41,252 nucleotides of DNA from a virus: the IMG/VR virus record IMGVR_UViG_3300045988_175715; one strand, given 5' to 3'. Positions 1 to 41,252 of the stretch are shown here, in pieces. Both the position numbers and the translations under genes were made by a program. Position 1 is the first letter of the stretch; each line of letters begins with the position of its first letter. The notes below the pieces were generated by a model. It saw only the letters and a program-made list of their open reading frames with translations. It had not been told where the DNA came from and searched no databases.

Positions 1-119
1 ATGTTCGTTAGCGCCGTGTCAGGCAACACCCTGACTGTCGTTCGTGGCTTTGCTGAATCGACGGCCGCCGCAGTAACTCAGAATGACGAACTGCTTTACT
101 TGGGTACTGCCAAAAAAGA
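1..119. repeat. 119-bp exact direct repeat with 41134..41252. This is a terminal overlap of a circular or terminally redundant genome, most likely produced by circular-contig assembly.
   Basis: The first 119 bases (atgttcgttagcgccgtgtcaggcaac...ctgccaaaaaaga) are identical to the last 119 bases of the window. The repeat falls inside one continuous capsid ORF. Confidence 0.9.
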
Positions 120-855
120 GGGTTCGTTGGCGCCGAATCCTAAGTACCGCCGTGGCGTTCCTCGTATGAATTACAGCCAGATTTTCCGCAATGGCTGGGG
201 CACGACTCGTACGGCTGCGCACATTAAGTTCATCACTGGAAACAAGGCAACGGAGAACAAAGAAGATGCCGTGTCAATGCACGCGCAGGACATCGAAATG
301 GCTTTGCTGCTTGGCCGCAAATCTCTCAATCAGGTTGACGGCTCCGAAGTGCTGAGCACGATGGACGGCTTGATGAGCATTGTTAAGAATAACACTGCAT
401 TGGCCGCCGCTGCAACTTTGGACTCAATTCAGGAATGGATGTACAGTAACTTCGAGACCTGCCCTGAGGGCGTTCCTAATGAACGTGTCGTTATGACCTC
501 TCTCAATGTACTTTATATTCTCAACAAGCTCATTAGAGATGCCGGCAGCTCGTATTACCCGATTGGGACTGCGACTAAAGTATACGGCCTCGACGTGTAC
601 GCACTTCAGTTGCCGGGAATGCAGGAAGTTAAGATTCTTGCTCACCCGCTGTTCAGCCAGACTGAGTCGCTTAGCAAGTCGATGCTGATTTACCACCCGG
701 GCTTGATTAAGATTGGTTATATGACCGACGCCGAAATCAAGGATGCGACTCCGGTAGGTATGGACGGTCAGGCCAACGTAATTACCTCTGAGCTCACTCT
801 TGAGTATGCAGATGAAAATACCGGAGGCGTTCTCAGTAACATCTATCTGGAGTAA
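1..855 (+). CDS. Major capsid protein, 3' portion. It belongs to the same gene as 40837..41252.
   Basis: 284-codon ORF with no ribosome-binding site of its own. The gene order terminase-portal-scaffold-capsid supports the call. No capsid motif was verified. Confidence 0.6.
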   Translation: MFVSAVSGNTLTVVRGFAESTAAAVTQNDELLYLGTAKKEGSLAPNPKYRRGVPRMNYSQIFRNGWGTTRTAAHIKFITGNKATENKEDAVSMHAQDIEMALLLGRKSLNQVDGSEVLSTMDGLMSIVKNNTALAAAATLDSIQEWMYSNFETCPEGVPNERVVMTSLNVLYILNKLIRDAGSSYYPIGTATKVYGLDVYALQLPGMQEVKILAHPLFSQTESLSKSMLIYHPGLIKIGYMTDAEIKDATPVGMDGQANVITSELTLEYADENTGGVLSNIYLE

Positions 856-860
856 CGATT

Positions 861-1178
861 ATGCAATGTGTAATTAGGGTTTACAATAAGAACCTACGTA
901 GCCTCATTACTTCCAAAGGCCACATTAAGTTGGCAAATGGTATCGGTTTCATTGAGTTGGAATCAGACGAAGAAGTCGGGCCGTTTTCCAAGGAGCTGTC
1001 TAAATTTGCTGCTGTTGAGGCAATTAAGTCTGAAGAAGAAAAGCAGCAGGCAAATGACGAAGCGGCCAAGGGACAGGATGAAGGCAATGAACTTGGCACT
1101 GGCAATGTGGGCTCGGCGCAGTCGTTTAACTTTAATAACTTAGTTAAGGGCTCGAATCCGTTGCCGTCTGTTAAGTAA
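861..1178 (+). CDS. Small acidic protein of 105 aa. Possibly a capsid decoration or head-associated protein.
   Basis: ORF lies immediately after the capsid gene. It is rich in Glu/Asp/Lys and is followed by a rho-independent terminator. Confidence 0.45.
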   Translation: MQCVIRVYNKNLRSLITSKGHIKLANGIGFIELESDEEVGPFSKELSKFAAVEAIKSEEEKQQANDEAAKGQDEGNELGTGNVGSAQSFNFNNLVKGSNPLPSVK

Positions 1179-1191
1179 CAAAGGTAATTAA

Positions 1192-1225
1192 AGCCCTGAG
1201 GCAGAAATGCCTTGGGGCTTTTTTC
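1192..1225 (+). terminator. Rho-independent terminator closing the scaffold-capsid cassette
   Basis: agccctgaggca-gaaa-tgccttggggct forms a roughly 12-bp imperfect stem and is followed by tttttt. Confidence 0.7.
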
Positions 1226-1243
1226 GTATGAAAGGTAATTGAG

Positions 1244-1993: not shown

Positions 1994-2009
1994 AGGGGAG
2001 GTAATTGAG

Positions 2010-2156: not shown

Positions 2157-2161
2157 TTGAG

Positions 2162-2670: not shown

Positions 2671-4500
2671 ATGGTTTCAATAGTTAATAAGAACTTATTG
2701 ATATTCAATCCTAATATAACCTATGATAGAGTCGAAGGCAATCAACTTAACATAACAGACGGCTCGAACATTATCCCGACATACAATGGATACTCGACTG
2801 GCCTTGGCTACAAGCCGCTGTTTTTTATGCCTTACTCAAGGAACGTCGAGCTGAAAAAGGTAGTCGATTTACAGGATGATGCTGGGAAGTTAATTATCAC
2901 AAACAAGTACATTTACCGGTACTCAGCCACCACAGGCGATGGAACAGTGCTGTTGATGTTAAGCAGCGATGCCGAAAATGTGAGTGTAGATTACATTGGC
3001 GCCTACTACTACATCTTGTGCGACCAAGTGCTGTTTAAGTATGACCACTTAATTAACTCCATCACCCAAATCAGCCCCACGGGCTTCCCTCAGAGTGCCA
3101 AGTTCATCTGTGCGACGAATAACAGGTTAATTGCCCTGAGTGATGATGTCATCGCTTGGAGCGCTGTTGGCAATGGAGATGACTTCCAGCCGAGTACAAC
3201 TACTGGAGCCGGTTTTCAGAGTCTGGACTCACTTAGCACTGGTAAGGGAATTGCCTTGGCTAAGAAGAAAAACGGCTTTCTGGTGTTCACATCGGACAAC
3301 GTAATTAGCGCCACCGAGCTGAACACGGCATTGGTTTACAATTTCAAGGAAGCCAGTAAGCATCGGATTCTCAATCGAGACTGCTGCTTAACTAGCACCT
3401 TTGGCATTGTCTACTTCATTGACTCAGACAAGAACCTCTACAGCTACGAGGATTTGGGCTCACTGGGTTCCGGTGGGTTCAAGGTCGTAAATGAGATGTT
3501 AATTGACTATTTCAACTCAATCGACATCGACATCGAATACCTAGACTTGTTGGAAACTCGCTACCTTGTAGTTAATTACTATGGAAACATACTTGGCATT
3601 GACTTGTTGCTTGGGCGCGTTTTCAAGGTACAGCACGCATTAACTGCTGTTCGTGGTTTCAACTTCATTAACTTCCAGCACTTCTGGAACTTCGAGTACC
3701 GCAGTGCTTATAATACAGAATTTAATGAAATAAGCTACTACGGCAACAGGCTGCACGTTGAGTCAATTGGAAGCTTGTCCGCAGAGCAGCCTGACACAAT
3801 GTGTGCTTCAATTAACCTCTATGCAGAATTGCCGCTCGCTGATGCCGTCATAACGCATTTAGTTGATAAACTCGAGCCTGAGTTCAATAAGCTGGAACTG
3901 CCATTACCAGCAGTATTCGATGAAGACTTGAATGGCAGCTTGCTCGATGAAGACCTAAATGACAGTGATTTTGATGTTGACCTGAATGATTATGACAATA
4001 CGTGGAGCAGCGGCTTTGAATTAAGTTGCGGCTTTGAAACAGATGTGTATCAGCAAGCAAAGCGGATCGACAAAGTGGACGCGTTTTTTGAGTTCAACTC
4101 AATTAGCTTCGCACCAGAAATCCCCATCGAGTGCACTACGGTAATAACTCGAGTTGACACTAATATGTCAAGTAACAGGAAGGAGTTCATTTGGGACTGT
4201 CAGCTTCAAGCGCCCCAGCTTGACTGCGCAGTCACCCAGGAACCTGACTTCGAGTGGAACCAGAACATATCAATGGGGTATGATGTGTCAATTACCTTGA
4301 CATCTTCAACTGACGCCTACGGAAACTTGCCACATCACAAGGTGTTAATTGAGGACAAATACTTCGTTGGGCGCCGCCTTGTAGGCAACATCTACAACAC
4401 TGGCGTTTACCACATGCTCAATTATGCTGTAAAAGGCTTTTGTGAGATAACAGGGATACAATTTAACTTATTTAAGGGAGGTCTTATTTATGACAGATAG
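2671..4500 (+). CDS. Large virion structural protein of 609 aa. Possibly a tail tube or nozzle component.
   Basis: ORF with ribosome-binding site AAGGAGG. It lies in the structural block and ends in an acidic D/E/N-rich repeat segment. Confidence 0.5.
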   Translation: MVSIVNKNLLIFNPNITYDRVEGNQLNITDGSNIIPTYNGYSTGLGYKPLFFMPYSRNVELKKVVDLQDDAGKLIITNKYIYRYSATTGDGTVLLMLSSDAENVSVDYIGAYYYILCDQVLFKYDHLINSITQISPTGFPQSAKFICATNNRLIALSDDVIAWSAVGNGDDFQPSTTTGAGFQSLDSLSTGKGIALAKKKNGFLVFTSDNVISATELNTALVYNFKEASKHRILNRDCCLTSTFGIVYFIDSDKNLYSYEDLGSLGSGGFKVVNEMLIDYFNSIDIDIEYLDLLETRYLVVNYYGNILGIDLLLGRVFKVQHALTAVRGFNFINFQHFWNFEYRSAYNTEFNEISYYGNRLHVESIGSLSAEQPDTMCASINLYAELPLADAVITHLVDKLEPEFNKLELPLPAVFDEDLNGSLLDEDLNDSDFDVDLNDYDNTWSSGFELSCGFETDVYQQAKRIDKVDAFFEFNSISFAPEIPIECTTVITRVDTNMSSNRKEFIWDCQLQAPQLDCAVTQEPDFEWNQNISMGYDVSITLTSSTDAYGNLPHHKVLIEDKYFVGRRLVGNIYNTGVYHMLNYAVKGFCEITGIQFNLFKGGLIYDR

Positions 4501-5794: not shown

Positions 5795-7843
5795 ATGAGC
5801 AAAGGCGTTTTACGAATTGCTAATGTTACTGGAGAAGGTGTTGACTACAATGACCGTGAAATCAGCACTGAAACCGGCCAGACGCTTAGCGTTTATTTGA
5901 ACAATGCCCGGATTGACTTGGCTCGTGCTGATATGAATAACGTGGCGGCTGACGCTGTTAGGAGTAAAGTAGCAGACGAACTTCAGGAACTTGAAGACGA
6001 GCTGTCGGCTGTTACTGCAGAGTCTGGTGCAAATGCAGCTACGTTGCCGAAAAAGAAGGACTTGTTAATTGGGTTGACCAAACCCTATACGGCCGATATT
6101 GTCACGGTCAGCTCGACTAATACCATCTTACTTAAGTCCTTCCAGTGGTTTAACGGCACGGACTTGGTGCAACATCAGGAAGAAACTGTTACAATCGGTC
6201 CCGAATATGCAGGCCAAGTTGTTTATGCTGGACTTAATGAAAGCGGCATCGGGGAAATAAGTACATCAGATTACGACATCTACTTAGCCCTGTGCAACAT
6301 CTATGTTAATGCAGATGGCGACTTAACGGCCTCGGAGCTTTCAGTGCGGCCGTTTTTGGCTGATTCAAGTACATTTGGCCGCGACCACCCTATAATGGTA
6401 GTTAACTTCGCTGCTCAAGTAACTTCCTCAGATTCGGCCAAGGGCTTGAGCTGCCAAAGTTTCGACTTAATTAAAGAAGGTATCAACTACGCCGGTAATT
6501 CGCAGCGGCCTGACCGCAAGCTGTTTCCTGCTATGCCGTCAATTAACTTCAAATATTACTACCCTAATTATGACCATGACGGCGAAACGGCTCAACCTAA
6601 CATTCAACCTTACTACTACAATACAACAACGAGCACGAAAACTCTGCTTGACTTAAGTAATGGTACTAGTAAATTTGTGGTCTTCAGGTTGGTGTTAATT
6701 GAAACTGGCCAAATCCTCCTGTTGCTTCAGCAAGTTTCGGACGAAAGCCAGCTATTCACTTCAGTACAAGAAGCGGAGCTTGGCTTGAAAGACCTTAATT
6801 GGAACTTAAGTCAGTTAAGCAGCCGCGCAATTTACCTCGACCAGTTCATTGTGTGTTCTGCTGACTTAACTATCTGCCAGATGGCCAATGTTGCTGAAGT
6901 CAGTAATTCGCAGAATATCACGATTAACCAACTTGTTTATGGTGTACTTGATTCAGTGTCACAAGTGCCAAACACAGTTGAGGAGTTTTCTGCAGTATTC
7001 TCTGGATTAACTCCGGTAGTTGGCGGGTGGTTTTTTGTGAAAGGTTCTCAAGTAATGCTCCCTCCAGGTACGTTAGCTGATGGTGGATTATATATGTATC
7101 GTATTAAGTCTATAATCTCAAGTAACATACAATATGATTCTTGGCAAATGGCTTCACGAGATTACGCTACTAATCAAGCTTACTATGTTTCTCAGTATTC
7201 AGCACCTTACATTGCTGTTGCTGATGGTTCAATCGGAATCGGAAGTACATTTATCGGTCAAGTTACAATAGAGCCTAAAGTTAATAACGTTTATGCTAAA
7301 TACACTTTATCAGATTCATCTGGTTGGCCCTTGATTGACTCTAATGGTTCTCTCGCTGTAGCATTAGCTGGCTGGACTGAGGGTATGCCATTTAATGCCA
7401 AGATGCTCTGCGCCGCAACTGAGAAAGTGATGTCAAGGAACTCTCAAATTAGTGCTGCGGATAATGCTGTGGTTACACTTGATAACCAGATTAAGCACTA
7501 TACAATTAGAGTAACTCATATGGCCGGCAGCGCTAAATTGCCTGTTGCTATCACAGTTCCGGCTGGCATTCCGGATGATGCGGTAATTACCTTTGAGCTG
7601 TTAATTGACTGCTCTGACTCAAGCTACGGCTCGCTGGTAACCGGCGTCGAATTTACAATTAACGGCTCAGCTGTTACACCTTACTGGATTGACAGCTCTG
7701 AGGGTACATTCCAAGAGTCGAGTGCTCCATATAAGTTAATTGCCTTGCGGCGTTCATTTAGGTATAATTCGACGGCGGCTCTTCCGGGCTACGAGCCTCA
7801 ATGGATAGCTAACATCGAAGCCGAATATGACACCACGGCGTAA
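5795..7843 (+). CDS. Putative tail fiber or receptor-binding protein of 682 aa, with a low-GC internal segment
   Basis: Ribosome-binding site AAAGGA. GC content drops sharply at about 7080-7500 inside the gene. Confidence 0.4.
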   Translation: MSKGVLRIANVTGEGVDYNDREISTETGQTLSVYLNNARIDLARADMNNVAADAVRSKVADELQELEDELSAVTAESGANAATLPKKKDLLIGLTKPYTADIVTVSSTNTILLKSFQWFNGTDLVQHQEETVTIGPEYAGQVVYAGLNESGIGEISTSDYDIYLALCNIYVNADGDLTASELSVRPFLADSSTFGRDHPIMVVNFAAQVTSSDSAKGLSCQSFDLIKEGINYAGNSQRPDRKLFPAMPSINFKYYYPNYDHDGETAQPNIQPYYYNTTTSTKTLLDLSNGTSKFVVFRLVLIETGQILLLLQQVSDESQLFTSVQEAELGLKDLNWNLSQLSSRAIYLDQFIVCSADLTICQMANVAEVSNSQNITINQLVYGVLDSVSQVPNTVEEFSAVFSGLTPVVGGWFFVKGSQVMLPPGTLADGGLYMYRIKSIISSNIQYDSWQMASRDYATNQAYYVSQYSAPYIAVADGSIGIGSTFIGQVTIEPKVNNVYAKYTLSDSSGWPLIDSNGSLAVALAGWTEGMPFNAKMLCAATEKVMSRNSQISAADNAVVTLDNQIKHYTIRVTHMAGSAKLPVAITVPAGIPDDAVITFELLIDCSDSSYGSLVTGVEFTINGSAVTPYWIDSSEGTFQESSAPYKLIALRRSFRYNSTAALPGYEPQWIANIEAEYDTTA

Positions 7844-9430: not shown

Positions 9431-10009
9431 ATGATTAACATTATATGCTCAATTATCATTCTAACCCTATACGGGGCTTTAGTTAACCGGATTCGGGGCG
9501 GCCTTGAGCTACCTGGGTTAGGCGAGTTGCCACTTAATAAACTCTGGCAGCCACTCACGTATGGATTAACCATGGCGAATTTTGCTTCAAGCTACTGCCC
9601 CGAAGCTGTAAGCCCAATTACTTATGCAGTACTTAATTGCCTTACTATGTACCTCGGCCAGCAGATTTGTGGCTGGGGAACCTATATAGGTGAATTGACT
9701 ACGGGGCAGCAAAGCTCTCGTGAAGAGTGCCCTGCTATAGATGAGTTAATTAAGAACATAAGTTCACCGAGAGTTTATGGATTTTGCGGCTTGTGCCTTC
9801 GTGGCCTTGTCTGGACATTCTTAATTGGCTTACCCTTATACTCCATACCCCTGATGCTGTCTGGGCTGTTAATGGGCCCTGCATACCTAATTGCCACTTT
9901 GATTTGCCAAGCGCTTAATTGTGATGCGGGCAAAAACGCATGGAACTTAGGTGAGTGGGTTTGGGGCGGCCTACTTTGGTTCTGTATCGCATTAACTGCC
10001 ATAGTGTAG
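9431..10009 (+). CDS. Polytopic, Cys-rich membrane protein of 192 aa. Possibly related to lysis or superinfection.
   Basis: Ribosome-binding site AAGGAGG. There are at least four hydrophobic segments and the gene lies immediately upstream of the lysis cassette. Confidence 0.4.
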   Translation: MINIICSIIILTLYGALVNRIRGGLELPGLGELPLNKLWQPLTYGLTMANFASSYCPEAVSPITYAVLNCLTMYLGQQICGWGTYIGELTTGQQSSREECPAIDELIKNISSPRVYGFCGLCLRGLVWTFLIGLPLYSIPLMLSGLLMGPAYLIATLICQALNCDAGKNAWNLGEWVWGGLLWFCIALTAIV

Positions 10010-10489: not shown

Positions 10490-10748
10490 GCTACTAGGCG
10501 CTTTTTTAGCCCTGCTGCTAATTGTCTTGATGGTGTCAATTTGGTATGCCGAACGCCGCGAAGCAATTGGGTATGCTAGGGCGAAAACTGAAGTTAATGA
10601 ACTTATAAAAGTTAAGGAGCAAACAGATGATAAAATTACTCAAGCTTCTGTTGAAGTTAATAAGCGCTTTAATGAAATTAACAGCAGCAATAGCAGTTGC
10701 GCTGATTATTATAGCAGCCCTGTGCCTGCTGAGTGCTTGCTCGACTGA
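10476..10748 (+). CDS. Inner-membrane spanin subunit, Rz-like
   Basis: ATG at 10476 has ribosome-binding site AAGGA. The protein has one N-terminal transmembrane segment followed by a charged coiled-coil region. The outer-membrane spanin ORF overlaps it. Confidence 0.55.
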   Translation: MGSIKLLGAFLALLLIVLMVSIWYAERREAIGYARAKTEVNELIKVKEQTDDKITQASVEVNKRFNEINSSNSSCADYYSSPVPAECLLD

Positions 10749-10893
10749 GCGGGTAATTGTACAGAAAGTTCAATGCGCCCAGCTCGTTCGGCCGTCAATT
10801 AAGACCAATGGCGACCTTGTTCAATGGACAGCTTTTCTAGAACGCGCCTATGGCTTGTGCAACGAGCGGCCAATTTTGAAGAAAGTTAATTAA
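10627..10893 (+). CDS. Outer-membrane lipoprotein spanin, Rz1-like. It lies in a different frame, overlapping the 3' end of the inner-membrane spanin gene and extending beyond it.
   Basis: Ribosome-binding site AAGGAG. A signal peptide ends in the lipobox LLSAC. The position and frame relative to the inner-membrane spanin are classic. Confidence 0.6.
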   Translation: MIKLLKLLLKLISALMKLTAAIAVALIIIAALCLLSACSTERVIVQKVQCAQLVRPSIKTNGDLVQWTAFLERAYGLCNERPILKKVN

Positions 10894-28371: not shown

Positions 28372-28999
28372 CGGCGGCCTCGCCTGCGGCTTCGGCTTTG
28401 CCAATGGCTTCGCCATACCTGATTAACTTCTGCTCGACCCAATTAACTTGAATACCCCAATCAGAGAATAAGCAAAGGTGGTAGCTATAGGACTGCTGTG
28501 CAAGGCACTCGTGAATGTAGCTGCTAAGCTCCCTTCGAGTTACCTTGAGTTTCTCCGAGGCAATTAAGTTATAAACAACTTTGTGGCGCCGCTGTTTCAG
28601 GTGAGAGTCAATTACCTTGATGTTCCCGAAGCAGATTTTAGAGCCGTGTTCGAGCCGGAAGTTAATTAACTCTTTCGCCGGAATCAGCTTGAGCATTCCT
28701 TGAGTCCATCTACCTGGGTACTTACTGAAGCAAGAACCCTCTGAGCCGCAGCCTGTGATAGCTGGGTGCACGGAGAAGCGAGTGATTTCATTGAGTTTCA
28801 TAAGTTCCTTGAGTGCCTTGGCAAAATCGCCCATTGAAGCATAGACGCGAAAGGTCAGCTTGGCTTTCCTGTATGCTTTAACTTCCTCGGCTAGCCTGAC
28901 GGAATTTGGGGCGGCTTTCCGCTGGGTGAACTTGCTTGACTTGGAAGTTGCTTGACGGCTTCTGGAAGCCGGCTTGGAATATCTAGTTATTGTTATCAT
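28361..28999 (-). CDS. Hypothetical protein of 212 aa
   Basis: Internal ATG (MITITRYS) has ribosome-binding site AAAGGA. Confidence 0.4.
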   Translation of the reverse strand: MITITRYSKPASRSRQATSKSSKFTQRKAAPNSVRLAEEVKAYRKAKLTFRVYASMGDFAKALKELMKLNEITRFSVHPAITGCGSEGSCFSKYPGRWTQGMLKLIPAKELINFRLEHGSKICFGNIKVIDSHLKQRRHKVVYNLIASEKLKVTRRELSSYIHECLAQQSYSYHLCLFSDWGIQVNWVEQKLIRYGEAIGKAEAAGEAADAN

Positions 29000-29116
29000 C
29001 TTAATTGTCCTTTCAGTGATGGTGGTTTTAGCCATGTTTGCTATTAATTGCGTTGCGTTGTAGGAGTTACTTTGTAGCAGGTCTGGATTCGTTATTCGTA
29101 ACCTGGGCAGTGGGCA

Positions 29117-30236: not shown

Positions 30237-31994
30237 TCAAGCTGGCGCTCCTCGAAGCCACTTGTTAAGGAAGTCCTCAATGTAAGCGGCAGTTTCGCTG
30301 TCTGAGTTACTTGAGATAAGATTCTCAATTTTCTCCCTATCCGAAGAGCCGGGCAGCTGGCGGTTTTTGAGCTTGGCTAAGCCACTCTTGTTGTAAATTA
30401 CCCAAGCAAAGTCAGAAGCTCGAGTCAAGGCGGTGTAGGCGTATTCGTTGTTAATTGAGTTGCCGTTTTTCCAGTCAAGTAAATTGATGATGCACCGCTT
30501 GTACGTTGAGCCCTGTGCTTTGTAGCAGGTGATGGCGTTGGCGAGGAGCAAGTTACTTATCTCGCCTATAGTGCTCAAGCTGATTTGGCGTAAAGTGCCA
30601 TAGATGTCAATGAACTCTATAGTTAAAGTATGACTTGCTTTCTTTGAGAAGAAACCCTCTTCATCGGCGCTGTTTTGTGAATCCCCTGACGAGGCGCTCT
30701 GTTGGGCTGACTGCTCAATTAAGTTGTCGAGTTCATCAGGACTCAGTTCGCTGGGCTGCGCTTCGCTTCGCATAATGTCCTTATTCATCGGCGAAGCCCC
30801 TGCCGGCGCCACCACGTCTTCATTAAGTTGCATCTCAATTATGTGGCCCGTTGTTCCGTTAATGTAGCCGTCTTCGTAATTATTCTTCGTGAACATCACG
30901 TTGTCGCCGACGCCGAATAACTTAATTGCCACGCCGCAAAGCACTGCTTGCTTAGTTACGCCGAGATACTTGTTAAGCCGCTGATTGAGAATCTCTTGTC
31001 CAGTAGCTCCGACGTTGGTCGGGGTGATAATGCAGTCCTCTTGTTCATTGAAGCGCAGGTGGTATTTCTCGTTAATTAACTCAATAATCCGATAGAGGTC
31101 AAGGTAGTTTTCGGCCTCAATGAACTTAACGTTCTTGAACTCCTTTGCTTTGATGGCCTGTTGCAGAGCAAGTAAGTTGGCTGACTTGAAGAGGTGAGCT
31201 GCTTGGACGATGTCGTTTCCATCAGCTTGCCGGTGCACAGTGGTAAGATAATTGAGGGAGCAGCCGGAGTGCGCCCCAAAGTAAGCTATGCTTGTCTTGC
31301 CGATGACTGGCTGAAGCTGGTTGATGTCACCTACGAGAATTAACTTATGCAAGCTATGCAGGTCGAGGGCTGCGAGGGTTTGAAGCATAAGTTCGTTGGA
31401 TACCATTGACACTTCGTCGATAATCAGGACCTTTGTGTCAATTCGCTTGTTGGCTGCATTAAAGGTTGGCACAAAGCGCCGGCTTAGGCGGTACCCGCAG
31501 GGCTTACTTGGGTCTGGTATCTCAATTAACTCAGGCACAAATTGAAGCCACTTGTGCAGTGTAAGGCACTGGGGAATGAAGGGTGCGAGCGCTGGGTCTG
31601 ACTTAATTGACTTGATGATGTTAAGCACCGCCTTACCCGTAAACGCGCAGAGGAAGATGCTTGAGGCATCGAACTTCGTTAGCAGCTCCTGCAAAACAGC
31701 CTTCAATGTAAAGGTTTTCCCAGTGCCGGCGGCTCCAGTCAGGATACTTAATTGACTCGAACAGATGTTGCGCACCGCCGATTGCTGGCTTGCATCGAGA
31801 GCATTGTTAAGACAATTAAATTCTGAAGTTGCTTGTGCATCAGTGTCAATTAAGTTAGTTGCCGGTGAAGTTGTCGGTGAAGGCATTGTTTGTGTAGCGT
31901 CAATGGAGTTAGCTTGTTTCAACGGTGAAGGCGCTTGCGCCAGAGCCGATTGAAGCGAGGCTGAGGCAATTAAGTCAGCTAGTGAAATGGGCAT
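30237..31994 (-). CDS. SF1 helicase of the Dda/RecD type
   Basis: Walker A LTGAAGTGKTFT and Walker B LIIDEVSM. CYKAQGSTYKR matches RecD motif V/VI. The N-terminus and one internal insert are low in complexity. Confidence 0.7.
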   Translation of the reverse strand: MPISLADLIASASLQSALAQAPSPLKQANSIDATQTMPSPTTSPATNLIDTDAQATSEFNCLNNALDASQQSAVRNICSSQLSILTGAAGTGKTFTLKAVLQELLTKFDASSIFLCAFTGKAVLNIIKSIKSDPALAPFIPQCLTLHKWLQFVPELIEIPDPSKPCGYRLSRRFVPTFNAANKRIDTKVLIIDEVSMVSNELMLQTLAALDLHSLHKLILVGDINQLQPVIGKTSIAYFGAHSGCSLNYLTTVHRQADGNDIVQAAHLFKSANLLALQQAIKAKEFKNVKFIEAENYLDLYRIIELINEKYHLRFNEQEDCIITPTNVGATGQEILNQRLNKYLGVTKQAVLCGVAIKLFGVGDNVMFTKNNYEDGYINGTTGHIIEMQLNEDVVAPAGASPMNKDIMRSEAQPSELSPDELDNLIEQSAQQSASSGDSQNSADEEGFFSKKASHTLTIEFIDIYGTLRQISLSTIGEISNLLLANAITCYKAQGSTYKRCIINLLDWKNGNSINNEYAYTALTRASDFAWVIYNKSGLAKLKNRQLPGSSDREKIENLISSNSDSETAAYIEDFLNKWLRGAPA

Positions 31995-32233
31995 TTGGTT
32001 ATCCTCTCTGTTTAAGCGGCCTTGCGGCCGATGTTAATTAAGTCGTTAAGGTGCCACAAGGCAGCAGATGGTCGAAGACAAGTAAGTTAAATGTTTCGGT
32101 GTAAAGCACTGGGCGAACGACGAAGGCAAGTTAATTGAGTTTGCCGAAGCGAGCCGTTAGGCGAGCCCTGCTGTCAAGAAAAAAGTGTTAATTGAGCTCA
32201 AAAAACCACTTCGTAGGAAAAATCGTAACGCAC

Positions 32234-32458: not shown

Positions 32459-33109
32459 TTAAAGGTCCAAGTCGTTGTCAATTAAGTCTGCCATCTTAAG
32501 CACCTTCTGGGAAAAACTAGCTTCGTCGGTGGTAACCGACAGAGCTTTAATGAACATCTTTAAGTTAGTTTTTTGTGCTTGAACCTGCTTGGCTCGCTGT
32601 TTACGCCGCTCAATTAACTCTCTTTCCGCTAAGCTAGCTCGGTGCTCGGCGCGTGCACGTAATCGGGCTCTTTGTTCCGCTTCAAACTGCTTGATTCGCA
32701 AGCTTCGATTAGCCGTTTCGGTGGTTAGTTTGTCAATTAAGTTCGATAGAATAGCCGGGGCTGTTTGCGGGTTTTCACTCAATTTAGGTTCATTTACGCC
32801 GCTGGCGGCCGAATCTGCTAACAATTTAATGTAGTCAATGATAGTCAAGCGGGGCAAGTGTTGCAAAACAGCAGAATAACCTGATCGGATTTTATCAGCG
32901 GTGTCGATTGAGCAATCAATTAAGGTAAACAAGCCAAGCAAGGCGGATTTTTCGGGCGGTAAATCAGCAAGTGTAACAATATGACAATCGGTGATGACAT
33001 ATTCAGCGAGGGCGGAAAAATCGGTAAGGGTAAATTGAGATAGCGTTTTAAGCCGGGGTTTTTGAAAAGCGTTTAGATTGTAATAGATGGTTGTGTTTAA
33101 GTTTGTCAT
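32459..33109 (-). CDS. Early protein of 216 aa with a basic helix and an acidic ...DNDLDL C-terminus
   Basis: ORF with ribosome-binding site AAGGA. Confidence 0.45.
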   Translation of the reverse strand: MTNLNTTIYYNLNAFQKPRLKTLSQFTLTDFSALAEYVITDCHIVTLADLPPEKSALLGLFTLIDCSIDTADKIRSGYSAVLQHLPRLTIIDYIKLLADSAASGVNEPKLSENPQTAPAILSNLIDKLTTETANRSLRIKQFEAEQRARLRARAEHRASLAERELIERRKQRAKQVQAQKTNLKMFIKALSVTTDEASFSQKVLKMADLIDNDLDL

Positions 33110-33216
33110 TTCATTGAATCCTTAATGTGATTGTGTGTGATTGTAATGTGATAGTTTAATTAAGTGATAGTATTTAGTTAGATATTACTAGTAAAGGTTG
33201 TAGCTTAGAGCAAGAA

Positions 33217-33256: not shown

Positions 33257-34000
33257 TTAGATGTCTAAGTCATCTTCATCAATACTTGTTTCAACCTTAC
33301 GGTCAATTGCTTTTGCCGCAAGCGCAACAGCGTATCCGATATAGTCATCAGGCGTAAAAGTTACCCCGTGTGCAAAATTAACCGCATTAGGTGATTGCTT
33401 TTCACAATGCCATTTAATCAACGCACGGATATAATCAGCAACAGCAACGCTCTTACCTTTTACTTGAGTTTGGCCTAAAATCAAATTTGCTGTTTGCAAG
33501 TCAGCTAAAAACGTCTTAATTGTCTTCTCATTAATCAAGCTAGCTTTTGCCGGCATGTTGGCTTTTAAGCTAACTACCAAAGCCTTAACCAGGGCATTGA
33601 AAGGTTTCGACAAGGGATTCGCTTGAGCGTTGCCGCCGTTCTGCGGCGTGAGTATGTCGACAATATTATTGAGGTTAGGCAGGGTTAAAAGCTTGCGGAT
33701 GTAGTTACTTAAAAAGTACTTTTCCACAAACTCACGGCAAATGTCATTAAGTCCAGCGACTTCCATAACGTCCGGAATATTTGTATACAATACATCGTAT
33801 TTGCCCTGCTTATCTTTTATCAAGCGGCAAGATAATTGACGGTTGGAAAATCCATCAATAACCCTAACAGCGACGCTTTTAGCCGGTTCACCGGCAACAG
33901 CGGCAACTAGGTTACCATTGTCATCGGCGGTTACCTTAACCGCCTCACTAGCGCCGATTTTATTAAGTGCTTGTAAAAATTCTTCCGTTTCCATTTTCAA
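33257..34000 (-). CDS. Early protein of 247 aa with an acidic ...DEDDLDI C-terminus
   Basis: ORF with ribosome-binding site AAAGGA. Confidence 0.45.
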   Translation of the reverse strand: MKMETEEFLQALNKIGASEAVKVTADDNGNLVAAVAGEPAKSVAVRVIDGFSNRQLSCRLIKDKQGKYDVLYTNIPDVMEVAGLNDICREFVEKYFLSNYIRKLLTLPNLNNIVDILTPQNGGNAQANPLSKPFNALVKALVVSLKANMPAKASLINEKTIKTFLADLQTANLILGQTQVKGKSVAVADYIRALIKWHCEKQSPNAVNFAHGVTFTPDDYIGYAVALAAKAIDRKVETSIDEDDLDI

Positions 34001-34119
34001 TTCCTTTAATTAAAAGAGTTACATTAGGCGGGCTTCCCCGCCGGTTAATTTAGAGGCGCGCCGATTAGACGCAAGGAATAAGCCGGTTTTAATTGAGGCA
34101 ACCGGCAAGCCCGCGGCGG

Positions 34120-34437
34120 TTATCCGTGTTGTCGTAACCATTCCTTCAAGTCATGCCACAAGTATGTAGGAATATCAGCAGGATTATTCTGATATTGCAA
34201 TAATCTAGCTATAACCTCGATTAAGTTACTTGTCACGGCGTCAACGGAATCAACACTTTTTGTGTCGTCGTCAATCTGTAATGCTGAAAAGTCGTCGTAA
34301 ATCAAAATTGTTTTGCCGCCGCGGTTAAATTTATGCACTGCCGCCGATTCGACAAAATCAGCAAAAAACCGCGGCAAATAGTTACTTGTCTTTCTTATCT
34401 CAAGCAAAGCGCTAGCAAGGGAGTAGTATTTTGTCAT
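34120..34437 (-). CDS. First leftward early protein, 105 aa
   Basis: Ribosome-binding site GAAAGGAAAG. It lies directly downstream of a consensus promoter. Confidence 0.45.
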   Translation of the reverse strand: MTKYYSLASALLEIRKTSNYLPRFFADFVESAAVHKFNRGGKTILIYDDFSALQIDDDTKSVDSVDAVTSNLIEVIARLLQYQNNPADIPTYLWHDLKEWLRQHG

Positions 34438-34472: not shown

Positions 34473-34501
34473 ATTTTACAGGACTTTGCTTTTATTGTCA
34501 A
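34473..34501 (-). promoter_or_regulatory. Leftward early sigma70 promoter. TTGACA, 17-nt spacer, TAAAAT.
   Basis: Minus strand reads tttgTTGACAataaaagcaaagtcctgTAAAATaccc, about 35 nt upstream of the 34437 start. Confidence 0.7.
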
Positions 34502-34941
34502 ACAAAAACTACATTAGAATACCAAAAAATTTTGCCTTGTGCAAAAGGGGCTATAGCACCCCAAAGACAAGTGAAGGGCTGCGGCGTATATAAATGTACC
34601 CTCAGCAAATTCGCAAGAAAATTGGCATTTCCAGCCGGCTGATGCTTAATTGACACGTGAATCTGCATTAACTGCGTTAGCAGCTTCGAGGGCCGGTTTC
34701 CAGTTGGGTGCTAATTAGCTTCACAAGTCAATTAACTCCAAAGTGGTCAGAGCGGCTTGCCGCGAAACTCGAGTAACCGGCTTAACCGGACTTCGCTTGA
34801 AGCTAATGAACCTTTGAGGCCGCTTTCTGGTTGTGAAGCTAATTGACTTCGGCTGGTCAGCCGCTGCTTGTCAGCGCCTCGAATTACCAGAAGTAGTTGC
34901 TTAATAGTATATTGACTATAGTAATTGCAGTAGCTGCCCTG

Positions 34942-34994: not shown

Positions 34995-35903
34995 ATGACT
35001 TTAATCAATGAAGAATCAAGTGACGAGGCCACGAGCCGCAAAACCACTAGGGTGTTACTGGCCAAAATGAGTGCTGGGGCGCTAATGGCCTTTTGTGAGT
35101 TACTTGAGCGGGGTGACCTGGAGCAGGGCGATGAACTTGTCTATGTCAATTTGGGCTTCGAATGGCCAGAACAGGAGCAGGCCGCTGAAGCGCTCAAGGC
35201 AATTTGCAAGGAGAAGTTAATTAAGTTCACTGAGCTGCAAGGCCACCTTGAGTATGAGATGCTACACAAGTCAATCGAAAAACTCTATAGGCCAAGAGAT
35301 GCTTCACGGAATCTCCAGTGGCAGGGCTTTGTGCAGCGGTTGCAGCGGGGCCGCGGCTGGTGTGGAGGTAAATTGAGATGGGGTGAGTCAATTAAGTGGC
35401 TACTCATAAACCGGTACCTCAAGGAGCAGTACTTGAAGAAAGCTGCTCAGGAGCAGCTAGAACTGCACTTAATTTTCGGCTGTACCACAGAGCGCTCTGC
35501 TGAGCTGACTCGAAGCCGCCTTTCGGTGCCGGTGCTCAGGAACTTCAAGTTAATTAACCCCAACATCGCCAAGGGCCGCAGCAAGGCTTATTGCGTAGAG
35601 TGGTTAAGTAGGAAGGGCTGGGCAATAGGGCGGCTTTACACGGCGGGCTTAATTAAGCCAGGGTGCTGGTGCTGCCGCAGCAGGAACATCAAGGAGCTTA
35701 AGTTGATTAAACAAGAGTGGCCCGAAATTTGGCAGAAGCTCCATGAACTTGAGAAGTTAATTAAGGAACCTTACTACAGGACGCCTCGAGGCTGGGCGCT
35801 GCTTCAAGATGTTAATTACAAGGCCACAAAATTCACCTTAAGTAACACAAGCAACAAGGATAATAAGGCCAATAGTAGAAAGGGCAAGAAAGATGGAAAG
35901 TAA
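34995..35903 (+). CDS. Cys-containing hypothetical protein of 302 aa, upstream of terminase. Function unknown.
   Basis: Ribosome-binding site AGGAGG. Motifs GRGWCGG and GCWCCRSR are present. No methyltransferase, HNH or PAPS-reductase hallmarks were recognised. Confidence 0.45.
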   Translation: MTLINEESSDEATSRKTTRVLLAKMSAGALMAFCELLERGDLEQGDELVYVNLGFEWPEQEQAAEALKAICKEKLIKFTELQGHLEYEMLHKSIEKLYRPRDASRNLQWQGFVQRLQRGRGWCGGKLRWGESIKWLLINRYLKEQYLKKAAQEQLELHLIFGCTTERSAELTRSRLSVPVLRNFKLINPNIAKGRSKAYCVEWLSRKGWAIGRLYTAGLIKPGCWCCRSRNIKELKLIKQEWPEIWQKLHELEKLIKEPYYRTPRGWALLQDVNYKATKFTLSNTSNKDNKANSRKGKKDGK

Positions 35904-36711
35904 TGAAAACAGTAATGTTGAAAATGCTAATGTGAACGAAGTGAACACCGGCGGAAGCATTTGGCAATCACTTAACTCAGGGGCGCGGAGTAAGTTGGTG
36001 CAGTTAATTAACTCCGGAATGCCCACCGCAATGATGGCTGACTTTTTGAACCTCGAACCTAATCAGCTTGCTGAACTCTTGGAAGTTCCTGAGCTTAAAC
36101 AGTTAATTGCCCAGCAGGAAGCAGCTGAGCGCCTGAACTCGGCTGACGCCTCAAGCAAGTGGGACGAAGTCGAGGTGCTAGCTTTGAAGAATGTCCTCGG
36201 GGAACTTAATTCACGGCCAGACCCGGTTTTCGCCCTCAAGGCTGCGGCGGTTGCAAATAAGGCAATTAGGTCGCATAAAGGCAAGCAACAGGCTATGCAG
36301 CAGCTGGTCGAGGGAGCTAAGACTATCACGTTGCAGCTTAATCAGCAGGTCGTCAATGCACTGGTAAATGCGGGGCCAGTGGCGGGGCCGATAGCTCAAT
36401 TAGCACCAGCTGTGCCAAGTAGCTCGGGTAGCTCAGGTGCCGCCAGTAAAGTCCTTGATGTATTCACCGCTAAGGATATGGAGCGACTTGCTCGAGGCGG
36501 CTCTGAGATAGAAGCTTTCTTTGAGCCTGTTCAGCAAGCCGAGGAAACGAGCCCGGCCGGCATTGAGATGCTCAAGCAAGTTGACGACTTAATTGACTTG
36601 CCATCAAGCGCCACCGGAGCAGCTGGAACAGCCGGAGAATCCAGAGAAGTCAGAGAAGCTAAATTTGATAGTACAACAATTAAAGCAGCCGGAGGCGAAC
36701 ATGTTATATGA
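35893..36711 (+). CDS. Putative terminase small subunit
   Basis: An N-terminal helix-turn-helix-like segment (SKLVQLINSGMPTAMMADFLNL) is the sequence basis. The gene lies immediately upstream of the large terminase gene and overlaps it. Confidence 0.4.
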   Translation: MESNENSNVENANVNEVNTGGSIWQSLNSGARSKLVQLINSGMPTAMMADFLNLEPNQLAELLEVPELKQLIAQQEAAERLNSADASSKWDEVEVLALKNVLGELNSRPDPVFALKAAAVANKAIRSHKGKQQAMQQLVEGAKTITLQLNQQVVNALVNAGPVAGPIAQLAPAVPSSSGSSGAASKVLDVFTAKDMERLARGGSEIEAFFEPVQQAEETSPAGIEMLKQVDDLIDLPSSATGAAGTAGESREVREAKFDSTTIKAAGGEHVI

Positions 36712-38205: not shown

Positions 38206-40110
38206 ATGTTTACACCAGTAGAAAACTTTAAGGCTTATAGCGAGTCAAGGGAGTTGCGAAGTTACTGTAGTCACTTCGTAGGTATGTGCAGCGACTCGAC
38301 CAACGACCTGGTGCACCTTTGCGACAGAGTGTTAATTGACTTGTATGGTCGAAGCGGGGTAATTGACCGTTATGACGGAGTAACTCGGGACGGCTCTTTG
38401 GGCCTCGGCAACATACAAGAGCTCGTAGGCCGAATTACTCGATACGCGTTAAGCAAGATGAAAAATCGCAATGATATTAAGCTGCCGCTTGCTGCAACCC
38501 AACTTAATGAGGCCGCTTCTGACCTCGTCAATTTACTTATAAGTTCCAATGACAGCTACACAGCCTTTGGCAACCCAAATAACCAGAAGTATGTTGCGGC
38601 GGTGGCGGAGCGCATGAGTCAGGACTTCACTAGGTTCGACCATTTCAACGTGTTACTTCAGGCGTTCAAGTGCATACTTCATTATGGCATTGCCGCAGTG
38701 GAAGCTCGTTGGGATAAAGACTCAATTAACCAGTTCAACGTCGAGGGCGTCACGGAGAATCCGGCGTTCGGTGTGAATCTGAAGTTAATTAACCCCGGCT
38801 GCCTGTACTTCAGTAAATTAACTGATATGCGCTCATTTAGTGAATGTGGTGATTTTTGCGCCTACGTCGAGAGCATCGCCAAAACAGACATACTCAATCA
38901 ATCGCTGCACCCCGAAGTTGGTGACAAGGAACTTTCTGAGTTACTTGAGTGTAGCAGAACAGCCGGCTATCGCGCCGTTTTTTCGATGAACAACCCAAGG
39001 GACTTCAAATACATACTTGACTTCAACCCTTTGCCGCACGACACTGAACGCGATAGTGATATCACACGTGAGAACTTCATTAACAAGACAACTGTCTATG
39101 TGCGCGTTTGCCCTGAGTTACTTGGCTTCGAACTTCCCGGCCTCGAGCCGCTTACCAAGACGCTGCTTAAATTAACTTACATTGGCCAGACGCTAGTTAA
39201 TGCAGAAGTCAGTTCCAATGGAGTCATCCCCGTAGTCGTAGCCCCGATATTCCCCGGAGTTGCTCCGGCCGAAAATCTTACGCCGGTTCAATGCTTCATA
39301 AACTTCTTAATTAACACGAAGCAAAAAGGCGACCGGAAGAAAGTTTACGGACTCAATTTCTACGACCGCAATCGCATCTCACTCAATGAAATCACCAAAG
39401 CTAAGGAAGCTGATGAAGAGTGCCCGTGGATTCCGGTGTCGTCTGAGCCTAATGAGTCGCTTGGGTCTGCCATAATGCACTTCAATGATGCTCCGGATAC
39501 TCAGCATATCTTAAGTGACATCAACCAGATGAAGAACATAATGCAGATTATTATGCCGACTGACCAAGCTAGCTTAATGAGCAGCCTCGACAGAGCAACT
39601 GAGTGGCAGGCCAAAAAGGCACTTGAGACGTCGGGTAAGGCTACGAAGTTAATGGCGCGCCAAATTCAGGCGATGTTAATTACGCCCTTGAAGTCAATTC
39701 ACATCCAGACGATTTTCGACCATGAGGCTACCCTGATGGTCAAAGATGCTCAAGGTAATGATGTTCCGACTGCCATAGGCGAGTTCAGCGGCCGCGGTGT
39801 TATGTACTCAATTACCACCGCAATGACCGGCGTCGATAGAGATATAAAAGCTCAGCAGATGGATACATTCATTAACAAGTTAATTCAGTTGCCGCAAGTT
39901 GCCCAGGAATATGACTTAACTAAGTTGTTCGATTACCAGAGCAGCTTGACAGGGCACCAAATTGACTTCAGTATGTTCAAGAAAGAGTCGCCGATTGACT
40001 CATTGCCAATACAGCAGAGGAACTTAGCTTACCAGTTACTTCAGCAGGCTATGGCACAGCAGCAACAACAGCAGGAAATACCTGTTGACCAAAACAGTCA
40101 AAACATTTAG
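38206..40110 (+). CDS. Portal protein
   Basis: 634-aa ORF directly after the large terminase gene. It has a poly-Gln acidic C-terminus. Confidence 0.55.
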   Translation: MFTPVENFKAYSESRELRSYCSHFVGMCSDSTNDLVHLCDRVLIDLYGRSGVIDRYDGVTRDGSLGLGNIQELVGRITRYALSKMKNRNDIKLPLAATQLNEAASDLVNLLISSNDSYTAFGNPNNQKYVAAVAERMSQDFTRFDHFNVLLQAFKCILHYGIAAVEARWDKDSINQFNVEGVTENPAFGVNLKLINPGCLYFSKLTDMRSFSECGDFCAYVESIAKTDILNQSLHPEVGDKELSELLECSRTAGYRAVFSMNNPRDFKYILDFNPLPHDTERDSDITRENFINKTTVYVRVCPELLGFELPGLEPLTKTLLKLTYIGQTLVNAEVSSNGVIPVVVAPIFPGVAPAENLTPVQCFINFLINTKQKGDRKKVYGLNFYDRNRISLNEITKAKEADEECPWIPVSSEPNESLGSAIMHFNDAPDTQHILSDINQMKNIMQIIMPTDQASLMSSLDRATEWQAKKALETSGKATKLMARQIQAMLITPLKSIHIQTIFDHEATLMVKDAQGNDVPTAIGEFSGRGVMYSITTAMTGVDRDIKAQQMDTFINKLIQLPQVAQEYDLTKLFDYQSSLTGHQIDFSMFKKESPIDSLPIQQRNLAYQLLQQAMAQQQQQQEIPVDQNSQNI

Positions 40111-40113
40111 AAT
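40085..40113 (+). promoter_or_regulatory. Sigma70 promoter inside the portal 3' end, driving scaffold and capsid. TTGACC, 17-nt spacer, TAGAAT.
   Basis: ttgaccaaaacagtcaaaacatttagaat is followed by AAAGGAG and the ATG at 40129. Confidence 0.55.
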
Positions 40114-40128
40114 AAAGGAGTAAAATAA

Positions 40129-40815
40129 ATGGAAACTGAAAACGAACAAGTAAACGATGATGCCGGGTTTTTGGCCAGACTCAAGCAAGTCTTTACGTCA
40201 AGTCAACCCGAAGCGCCGGAAGAACTTAATCCGTTCAAGCAGGTGCCGCCGGCTCAAGCAAGTCAGCAAGCAGCACAAAGTGCACAGGGTGCACAGGGTG
40301 CTCAGCAGGGCAATCAGCAAAGCTCCGGTGATGTATTCAAGCAGTATGTAGCGAAGCAGAACTTCCTTGACGGCGTTGAATACGATGCCGCCGAGCTGAT
40401 GCAAGACCCAAGTAAGTTGGGAAACTTCATTAACTCTGTAGCACAGCGTGCTTACGGCAAAGCTCTGTATGATGCAACCAGTGTAATTGACAAAGCCATT
40501 GAAAACCGCCTCAATGCTTACGACAGCAATGTCAGCAACAAGATTCAGGCGGCCGTTTCAAGTAGGAGTCAATTGGACAAGGCCACTCGGGAGATTCCAT
40601 TGATGAAAGACCCAAGTGCCGCCCCGATTATTACGCAGGTAATGAAAGGGTTTTTGCAACAGGGCAAGTCGCTTGACGAGGCAACTGAAGCAACTAAGAC
40701 ATTTTTGCAGGACTTCAGTAACAAGCTCTCAAGCAAAAGCGCTGATGAAAAAGCAGCTGACAAGCATCGTAAAGACCTTGATGGCCTCTTCGGTAACTTG
40801 TTGATTAGTAAGTAA
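40129..40815 (+). CDS. Scaffolding protein
   Basis: 228-aa protein predicted to be helical and rich in Gln, Ala and Lys, with a QGAQGAQ repeat. It lies between portal and capsid. Confidence 0.5.
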   Translation: METENEQVNDDAGFLARLKQVFTSSQPEAPEELNPFKQVPPAQASQQAAQSAQGAQGAQQGNQQSSGDVFKQYVAKQNFLDGVEYDAAELMQDPSKLGNFINSVAQRAYGKALYDATSVIDKAIENRLNAYDSNVSNKIQAAVSSRSQLDKATREIPLMKDPSAAPIITQVMKGFLQQGKSLDEATEATKTFLQDFSNKLSSKSADEKAADKHRKDLDGLFGNLLISK

Positions 40816-40836
40816 ATTTAACAAAGGAGTAAATAG

Positions 40837-41252
40837 ATGATTCCAGGAATCTTTTCATCTCAGGGAGGTATCAATGCCGAGCGGCTTGATAGCTTCAATA
40901 GTAAATTGTTCCGGTCCCAGCTGGCCGGTACTGCCCCGATATTCTCATTGAGTTCGGGTGCCGCTCAGTTTCAGCTGACTTCGAAAATCCACTACTGGTT
41001 CATGAAGCAGCCGTATAGCTCGAAGTTAATTGCCTCGGCGGCAGCAAACAACTCGGCAACTTCCATCACTGTGGACAAAGGTGCTGTGGTTGAGCCGTCT
41101 TCGGTGATTATGAACACTAAGACTAATGAATATATGTTCGTTAGCGCCGTGTCAGGCAACACCCTGACTGTCGTTCGTGGCTTTGCTGAATCGACGGCCG
41201 CCGCAGTAACTCAGAATGACGAACTGCTTTACTTGGGTACTGCCAAAAAAGA
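40837..41252 (+). CDS. Major capsid protein, 5' portion. It continues in frame across the circular junction into 1..855; the whole gene is about 383 aa.
   Basis: ATG at 40837 is preceded by AAGGAG. The reading frame is open to the window end. 41134 minus 40837 is 297 nt, so this portion is in frame with the ORF at 1..855. It sits directly after portal and scaffold, and a strong terminator follows the gene cluster. Confidence 0.6.
   Translation, partial: MIPGIFSSQGGINAERLDSFNSKLFRSQLAGTAPIFSLSSGAAQFQLTSKIHYWFMKQPYSSKLIASAAANNSATSITVDKGAVVEPSSVIMNTKTNEYMFVSAVSGNTLTVVRGFAESTAAAVTQNDELLYLGTAKK

Follow-up and report, generated by a model that had tools for sequence, protein, structure and literature searches.

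Genome organization and relatives

The window analyzed here is the whole of a 41,252-nt stretch of viral DNA (IMG/VR record IMGVR_UViG_3300045988_175715) throughout which the octameric palindrome TTAATTAA and its TYAATTRA variants (Y, C or T; R, A or G) recur far more often than expected. The window is a complete phage genome from a circular or permuted assembly, its first 119 nt (1-119) being identical to its terminal 119 nt (41134-41252), with the capsid gene spanning the assembly junction (40837-41252, then 120-855). The genome has a GC content of 45.5% and about 40 genes in a podovirus-like layout that includes an SU10-type major capsid protein, a portal protein, a large terminase (TerL) and a 1,775-aa internal protein, together with a family A DNA polymerase, a RecD-like helicase, a PD-(D/E)XK nuclease, an AAA_24 ATPase and a DUF3987 primase-helicase-like protein encoded at 19448-20695. 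A gene at 34995-35903 on the (+) strand, just upstream of the terminase genes, encodes a member of the PAPS-reductase/PP-loop family. A search for tRNA genes in the window found none.

No close relative among cultured phages was found by megablast or tblastn, the nearest being LUZ24/PaP2-like podoviruses with a DNA polymerase 22-25% identical to that of the window. Close metagenomic relatives are plentiful, comprising 16 IMG/VR genomes with terminase identities of 91-99% and a protein cluster of 569 members, and one close relative has been deposited as 'MAG TPA ... Caudoviricetes sp.'. In a scan of genome contigs the TerL relatives were at most 35% identical and came from environmental metagenome-assembled genomes. 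A tree based on concatenated terminase, portal and capsid identities groups two lineages, L017 and L194, as sisters, joined by the window and then by L024, with the remaining lineages distant.

Abundance and location of the word

Word counts were compared with 100 dinucleotide-preserving shuffles of the genome. TTAATTAA occurs 35 times, whereas the shuffled sequences average 1.39 copies and none has more than 5, an excess of 25- to 28-fold (35 vs. 1.25-1.39 expected). An initial annotation, made from the sequence by eye, had put the number at about 35 with about 1.3 expected, an enrichment of at least 25-fold, and had named a count below 5 as grounds for abandoning the idea; its figures are borne out by exact counting. 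Its 19 example coordinates fared less well, with eight exact and 11 displaced by 1-12 nt (such as 13657 for 13659, 20128 for 20118, 23069 for 23057 and 38779 for 38785). The variants TTAATTGA and TCAATTAA, of which dozens more copies had been reported, are present 25 and 32 times, while TCAATTGA, said to be essentially missing, has four copies, the order-0 expectation being about one for each; the double Y/R variants are scarcer than independence predicts (4 vs. about 11), and the earlier statement was right in spirit, if not in the letter.

Altogether there are 96 TYAATTRA sites, 83 of which have C or G (S) on both flanks, and the resulting 10-mer S-TYAATTRA-S exceeds its shuffled expectation about 86-fold (83 vs. 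0.96). C or G occupies positions -1/+1 in 93% of the sites and A or T occupies positions -2/+2 in 54%, in agreement with the extension of the palindrome to A-S...S-T flanks that had been suggested. The array extends across the entire genome (1-41252), and when AATT centers with at least one S-TY half-site are counted it comprises 247 centers at a mean spacing of 167 bp.

Most of the TYAATTRA sites lie within codons (84 of 96), with three perfect and nine variant copies in intergenic DNA, where the initial annotation had also placed the word. Site density is higher in non-coding DNA, at 4.6 per kb (6.3% of the genome, 12 sites), than in coding DNA, at 2.2 per kb. Coding copies of TTAATTAA had been held to be readable solely as Leu-Ile-Lys/Asn, and 31 of 32 do read TTA-ATT-AAN, the exception being the copy at 10886, which supplies the stop codon of the gene at 10627-10893. 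Sites are found in nearly all genes, being rare in the capsid gene, the scaffold gene and two early genes. The capsid gene contains no copy of the 8-mer and spells three of its four Leu-Ile pairs with other codons, as had been claimed for all of them, the fourth being TTA-ATT. The longest run without a full site, of about 3.3 kb on the circle (39315-41252 plus 1-1459), lies over the scaffold and major capsid genes, which have the highest GC content at third codon positions in the genome and are presumably the most highly expressed.

Coding context and half-site structure

For copies within genes, synonymous codons were shuffled within each gene as the null. Coding TTAATTAA was observed 32 times against 6.5±2.4 in the shuffles (z 10.7), with 27 vs. 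4.4 for TTAATTGA and 21 vs. 3.4 for TCAATTAA; TCAATTGA was at expectation (4 vs. 2.2). Among the 137 Leu-Ile pairs, TTA-ATT is used 85 times (19.4 expected) and CTT-ATT once (18.9 expected), while TCA-ATT accounts for 39 of 74 Ser-Ile pairs (9.6 expected). The synonymous shuffles and the codon-pair table therefore rule out codon usage and Leu-Ile content as the cause, and with them the Leu-Ile codon-pair account that the initial annotation had set up as its own refutation. The Leu-Ile dipeptide is itself more frequent than the approximately 76 copies expected from composition, and in TerL the window has Ser-Ile, encoded within TCA-ATT-AAG, where all five relatives compared have Ser-Met. Some sites thus coincide with lineage-specific amino-acid replacements, which indicates that the pressure reaches protein sequence.

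Enrichment of the half-site S-TYAATT reaches 5.6-fold on the coding strand and 4.5-fold on the template, and it extends to every reading frame that stop codons permit. The signal therefore lies in duplex DNA, and a codon-pair, translational or mRNA-level cause is disfavored both by this result and by the intergenic copies. Among 463 AATT centers the left half S-TY is present at 184, the right half RA-S at 146 and both at 83. The excess is graded by the number of mismatches, being 4.4-fold with none, 0.73-fold with one and 0.28-fold with two, as expected under a binding-energy model. Sites with only one half are conserved equally to full sites among the relatives described below, and S-TTAAT lacking the AATT center is not conserved, so that the minimal constrained unit is S-TYAATT. 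The 8-mer palindrome that had been taken as the unit is indeed enriched, but it is not strictly the unit under constraint, the 7-nt half-site being enriched about 5-fold by itself, and most of the excess of the 8-mer disappears under Markov models of high order.

Conservation, spacing and turnover

Seventeen relatives with 87-97% nucleotide identity were projected onto the window. Divergence at third codon positions is 0.032 inside sites and 0.171 outside, about 5-fold less, and the flanking S positions diverge by 0.06 vs. 0.11-0.16 elsewhere. The third base of TTA diverges by 0.00-0.02 before ATT (0.014 in summary), by 0.20 before other codons that start with A and by 0.17 otherwise; since TTA before other A-starting codons diverges normally, a simple mutational context set by the 3′ neighbor is ruled out. 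Frame-0 8-mers are retained at 0.84 compared with 0.63 for controls, with single Y/R variants (88%) and perfect sites (87%) kept alike. In intergenic DNA the cores persist or switch between T and C at position 2 and between A and G at position 7, with the flanks changing freely. This protection of silent positions, alongside the shuffles, the codon-pair table and the strand and frame tests, upholds the original proposal that the signal acts at the DNA level and reflects neither codon usage nor Leu-Ile content.

The 247 half-site centers repel each other at short range, with no gap below 17 bp where 24 were expected, 17 gaps below 45 bp against 57±6 expected, and a coefficient of variation of gap length of 0.76 against 0.99±0.06; no repulsion of this kind is seen with control tetramers. 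This is unlike the outcome of a neutral generator working site by site, and would fit either a selective benefit that diminishes when another site is close by or a reader that occupies a footprint on the DNA. Over longer distances positions turn over. The window has 56 in-frame sites and L017, at 69% protein identity, has 49, with 11 shared positions against 0.55 by chance, so that density rather than position is kept over long times. A role as a recombination hot spot was rejected, as boundaries between identical and divergent blocks in the 17 relatives are not enriched at sites; the test is a weak one, with 3 of 10 boundaries near sites at the strictest setting and the effect vanishing when 28-134 boundaries are used.

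Distribution among phage lineages and palindrome avoidance

Enrichment of the word is confined to part of the phage family. L017 has 22 copies of TTAATTAA against 2.7 expected from composition and, under synonymous shuffling, 14 against 4.2; L194 has 20 TYAATTRA sites against 8.5, with perfect coding TTAATTAA not enriched (4 vs. 3.3), and in L024 the excess of TTAATTAA is absent (3 vs. 1.4). Other lineages accumulate other palindromes. L023 has 41 copies of GCTAGC against 12.0±2.9 in synonymous shuffles (48 vs. 2.6 by composition), and L193 has an excess of GCAATTGC (11 vs. 3.4), TTGCAA (40 vs. 17.5) and CAATTG (32 vs. 17.5). Among 120 IMG/VR loci listed for one 14-mer version of the word, clear enrichment of 17- to 60-fold was seen solely in relatives of the window, one very distant 7-kb contig having a marginal excess (5 vs. 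0.7), and in the other viral contigs from the same dataset the word is not enriched.

The accumulation of a palindrome takes place in a genome that otherwise purges them, in keeping with the earlier judgment that it is very unusual for a phage. GATC is present six times against 158 expected (0.04-fold) and CATG 33 times against 158 (0.21-fold); TTTAAA is missing altogether, ATTAAT is reduced to 5 copies against 66 under a maximal Markov model, GTTAAC to 3 against 32 and AATATT to 10 against 17, with CCWGG, GTCTC and GGATG likewise depleted in the window. GATC is purged in all lineages examined (L017, L019, L021, L023, L024 and L194), with zero copies in 12-21 kb, and CATG is usually at zero as well, while further 4-mers (GGCC, GCGC, AGCT and TCGA) are purged in particular lineages. 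L017 and L194 have a GC content of 35-38% with TCGA purged, whereas in the window TCGA is at normal frequency. TTAATTAA is identical over its 8 bp to the PacI restriction site, but restriction sites are purged from phages whereas this one is enriched 25-fold, and neither the S flanks nor the Y/R degeneracy is a feature of PacI; the host population presumably lacks a PacI-like enzyme.

Proposed function and alternative explanations

The reading favored here, to which a probability of about 0.4 is assigned, is that the word is a dispersed array of recognition sites on duplex phage DNA, maintained by selection and read by a sequence-specific protein. The half-site S-T-Y-A-A-T-T would be the element recognized, two overlapping halves forming S-TYAATTRA-S, and the sites, evenly dispersed and interchangeable, would be bound by a sequence-specific, probably dimeric protein acting genome-wide. 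The reader would come with the phage by inheritance and not from the host, and our preferred guess is that the array marks or organizes phage DNA and thereby directs a phage factor to it instead of to host DNA, which could serve protection, compaction, replication priming or packaging. Inheritance of the word in part of the phage family and the short-range repulsion between sites favor a selected array over a passive host signature, which the initial annotation had listed as one of three possible roles, next to a binding site for a dimeric protein and a modification target.

A number of observations weigh against this proposal. L017 and L194 show a weaker enrichment, which leaves inheritance by the clade less than clean-cut, and a host-encoded reader or host process is a live alternative. 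Among the unannotated early proteins, no helix-turn-helix (HTH) regulator, methyltransferase or obviously linked nuclease was found in Pfam, PHROG, PADLOC or PDB-sequence comparisons. The two half-sites occur together at 83 centers against 58 under independence (about 1.4-fold, odds ratio about 2.8), a modest excess that does not call for a dimeric reader. At each word length the maximal-order Markov ratio is about 1.0-1.2, which means that the signal is diffuse and the excess builds gradually instead of residing in one sharp word, although such a build-up would be expected of a degenerate site of the weight-matrix type that has many partial copies. Finally, S-TTAAT in the other frame (GTT/CTT-AAT), without an AATT center, is enriched even though it is not conserved. 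In the wider search for a reader, defense-related families were not detected in unannotated open reading frames (ORFs), and comparison of gene presence and absence between lineages with and without the word was noisy and nominated no gene. Candidate readers among the phage products are the proteins encoded at 32459-33109, 33257-34000, 34120-34437, 28361-29035 and 29117-30160, a zinc-ribbon protein (26756-27577), a TerS-like protein (35893-36711) and the PP-loop protein at 34995-35903.

Among the other explanations, a translational or RNA-level effect, be it codon-pair preference, off-frame 'ambush' stops or an mRNA element, is barely credible. Most of the enriched codon pairs do carry TAA or TGA off-frame or antisense, sense off-frame TAA and TGA are raised 1.2-1.4-fold and TTAATTAA closes four of the five alternative reading frames, but sense off-frame stops as a whole are up only 1.13-fold and open off-frame stretches average 13.4 vs. 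14.2 codons; with no general excess of such stops and off-frame ORFs barely shortened, ambush selection was rejected. TCA-ATT is enriched 4-fold though it brings no sense off-frame stop, and neither the similar enrichment on both strands and in several frames nor the higher site density outside genes fits an effect at this level. Just as implausible is an origin of the word as a side effect of avoiding restriction sites or of a limited word vocabulary. Many words are purged (GATC, CATG, TTTAAA, ATTAAT, GTTAAC and CCWGG) and avoidance of ATTAAT helps to explain why A is missing at the flank, yet recoding simulations in which protein sequence and codon usage were fixed and the avoided words were purged beyond their natural level rule this out, giving 4.0 copies of TTAATTAA when words resembling restriction-enzyme sites were purged and 7.7 when A/T-rich depleted neighbors were purged too, against 32 real copies, with 11.5 and 20.5 against 84 for TYAATTRA. 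Only slightly less remote is the idea that the sites are cold spots that mutate slowly, or that the word survives from an AT-rich ancestor and has yet to be eroded after a shift from about 35% to 45% GC. The close lineages are AT-richer (35-39% GC) and a low mutation rate would likewise give low divergence at sites, but there is no enrichment of other A/T-only words, several of which (TTTAAA, ATTAAT and AATATT) are purged, TTA before other A-starting codons diverges at the normal 0.20 rather than 0.00-0.02, and the repulsion between sites and site-creating replacements such as the Ser-Ile of TerL would be left without explanation. A replication or priming signal, with the half-site read by the DUF3987 primase-helicase (19448-20695) or another replication factor, is improbable. 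Half-sites on both strands, their roughly even spacing and short-range repulsion are what such a signal might look like, and a primase-helicase-like protein, DNA polymerase A and a helicase are all encoded by the phage itself. Known phage primases, however, read 3-5 nt, sites so short that enrichment would not be needed, the 167-bp spacing is far denser than priming of Okazaki fragments requires, and nothing links the DUF3987 protein to the word.

It is unlikely, if less so, that the word is the target of a site-specific DNA modification by a host or phage enzyme, with its density selected to mark the whole genome. An 8-10 bp palindrome with Y/R degeneracy resembles the specificity of type II methyltransferases and restriction enzymes, and relatives of the PAPS-reductase/PP-loop protein encoded at 34995-35903 act in DNA phosphorothioation. 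In the clade, however, the ATP-binding loop SGGKDS of this protein has decayed to MSAGAL while its GWCGG and CWCC motifs are invariant, which suggests that the protein is inactive, and it may be a pseudo-enzyme. Moreover, a methyltransferase domain was not found in any ORF tested, and conservation of half-sites on a par with full palindromes is atypical of a palindromic methyltransferase site. Somewhat more weight, though still well short of even odds, is given to a host-driven iterated palindrome or signature, arising from host repair, methylation or a nucleoid process (cf. Elhai's model for the cyanobacterial palindrome HIP1) or from a host DNA-binding factor. The word behaves like HIP1, a feature of host chromosomes (PMC5861425), the lineages differ in their over-abundant and purged palindromes as expected with differing hosts, and a reader gene was not found in the phage by profile and sequence searches of its ORFs. 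Against this, a word without cytosine cannot be generated by very-short-patch repair linked to 5-methylcytosine, and one-mismatch neighbors are less depleted than two-mismatch synonyms where conversion of neighbors predicts the opposite. Short-range repulsion is again unlike a neutral site-by-site generator, the window and L017/L194 appear from GC content and TCGA to face different hosts and yet share the word, and clear enrichment is confined to relatives of the window among the 120 IMG/VR loci listed, with viral contigs of the same dataset not enriched.

A broader and doubtful extension of the recognition-site array is that the phage family uses lineage-specific palindromes as a genome-wide 'self' code, each read by a co-evolving phage protein. 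The evenly spaced words would be S-TYAATTRA-S in the window, GCTAGC in L023 and GCAATTGC/TTGCAA in L193, and the reader would distinguish or organize phage DNA as a form of phage 'chromatin', for protection or for priming, the code evolving alongside the extreme purging of restriction palindromes. If true, this would be a phage counterpart of HIP1, in a 41-kb genome tractable enough for the reader to be found.

Comparison with known iterated words and site arrays

HIP1 (Highly Iterated Palindrome 1, GCGATCGC) and the alternate HIPs of cyanobacterial chromosomes are octameric palindromes present about once per kb at a 15- to 300-fold excess (PMC5861425). They occur in coding and non-coding DNA, are conserved beyond background and maintained by selection, and have no peptide, RNA or gene-regulatory explanation (PMC5861425). 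The phage word shares several of these properties. It is likewise an octameric palindrome over-represented at least 15-fold (here 25- to 28-fold), both words are found in coding and non-coding DNA at about once per kb, both are conserved beyond background within and between ORFs (for the phage word 0.032 vs. 0.171 and 0.84 vs. 0.63), and in frame both read X-Ile-X (GCG-ATC-GC vs. TTA-ATT-AA). However, HIP1 is GC-rich with a methylated GATC/CGATCG core, or in alternate HIPs another site that has its cognate methyltransferase in the genome, whereas the phage word is composed of A and T only in a genome where GATC is nearly absent and no cognate methyltransferase domain was found among the phage ORFs tested. 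The carrier also differs, being a 41-kb podovirus-like phage and not a cyanobacterial chromosome with 10-90 kb periodicity, and the Y/R degeneracy, the abundant conserved half-site and the demonstrated short-range repulsion set the phage word apart. As the sequence and methylation features of HIP1 are lacking, the word is a HIP1-like variant and not a member of HIP1.

GCGATCGC has no copy in the window, and the uptake signal sequence (USS), DNA uptake sequence (DUS), HIP1 and Escherichia coli Chi words are all absent from it. In the literature, no paper was found that connects a phage genome with TTAATTAA or with iterated palindromes of any sort. Operator arrays, such as the 'stoperators' of mycobacteriophage cluster A, the C1 operators of P1 and the KorB OB sites of IncP plasmids, consist of one short protein-binding site in many genomic copies, numbering about 12-36, which are mostly intergenic or oriented with transcription, and the repressor gene is known. 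The phage array resembles them in placing many copies of a site across a whole mobile genome, including the interior of transcription units, but differs in having 96-247 copies that lie mostly in codons (84/96), half-sites on both strands and no match to an HTH or repressor family among the phage early proteins. Chi, USS/DUS and the FtsK-orienting polar sequences (KOPS) are selected genome-wide words in which density matters over position, turnover is tolerated and codon choice is shaped. The phage word is likewise kept by selection across the genome, with density mattering and positions turning over, whereas those words are asymmetric and biased in orientation and the phage word is palindromic and strand-neutral (5.6- vs. 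4.5-fold).

To our knowledge, no function for HIP1 or other hyper-abundant palindromes has gained acceptance in some 30 years. The present case brings a phenomenon of the HIP1 type into a genome of 41 kb with about 40 genes and hundreds of natural variants, which makes it experimentally tractable, the more so with about 20 proteins of unknown function to consider and sister lineages that lack the word or have a different one. Silent-site protection, short-range repulsion and turnover at a constant density give clear evidence of selection. The case shows that selection can drive the accumulation of one palindrome in a phage even while extreme pressure removes others, and it bears on host prediction from k-mers, the recoding of phages by codon pairs and models of restriction avoidance.

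Individual sites and neighboring features

Strand is left unassigned for the individual sites. Within the first 21 kb of the genome TTAATTAA is found at 1460-1467 (coding, TTA-ATT-AAN), 3049-3056, 6467-6474, 9746-9753, 10886-10893 (the TAA stop noted above), 13659-13666, 13935-13942, 15195-15202, 15705-15712, 16713-16720, 17442-17449, 19800-19807, 20118-20125 and 20670-20677. Beyond these, copies lie at 23057-23064, 24002-24009, 24250-24257, 27225-27232, 27694-27701 and 28662-28669, followed by the closest pair of full sites, 29172-29179 and 29208-29215, which are 36 bp apart, and then at 29613-29620, 30078-30085 and 31072-31079. The three perfect intergenic copies are at 32034-32041 in the early region, at 33156-33163 and at 34006-34013, the core of the last being kept in all relatives while its flanks vary. 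The remaining copies are at 35217-35224, 35550-35557, 35649-35656, 35757-35764, 36004-36011, 38785-38792 and 39307-39314.

Variant copies also occur in intergenic DNA. Upstream of the helicase gene (32131-32195) there are two intergenic copies of TTAATTGA, at 32131 and 32188, the latter becoming TTAATTAA in seven relatives and the former being more variable. The divergent early control region (34646-34735) has TTAATTGA at 34646 and TCAATTAA at 34728, and here the core is retained or Y/R-switched in relatives while the flanks are heavily variable. Between convergent gene blocks the word is central to a 26-bp perfect palindrome, GGGTGGAATC-TTAATT-GATTCCACCC, at 18711-18736. The predicted hairpin (-19.8 kcal/mol, z -5.9), with TTAATT as its loop and A-rich and T-rich flanks, is probably a bidirectional terminator. 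At gene starts the context AATTGAGATG is found five times, including 2153-2167, the TTAATTGA word within it giving stop codons for the upstream gene and a GAG spacer immediately 5′ of the next ATG, an arrangement that suggests translational coupling built on this word.

A near-consensus sigma-70 promoter (TTGACA-17-TAAAAT) at 34473-34501 on the (-) strand is directed at the leftward early genes, and AGGAGG is depleted within genes (2 observed vs. 15 expected). Both features hint that the host uses promoters of the classical type and starts translation at Shine-Dalgarno sequences. Three unrelated early proteins, all encoded on the (-) strand (32459-33109, 27561-28160 and 33257-34000), end in similar acidic C-terminal tails (…DLIDNDLDL, …DLDNELDL and …IDEDDLDI), which may be a shared docking motif for one common partner.

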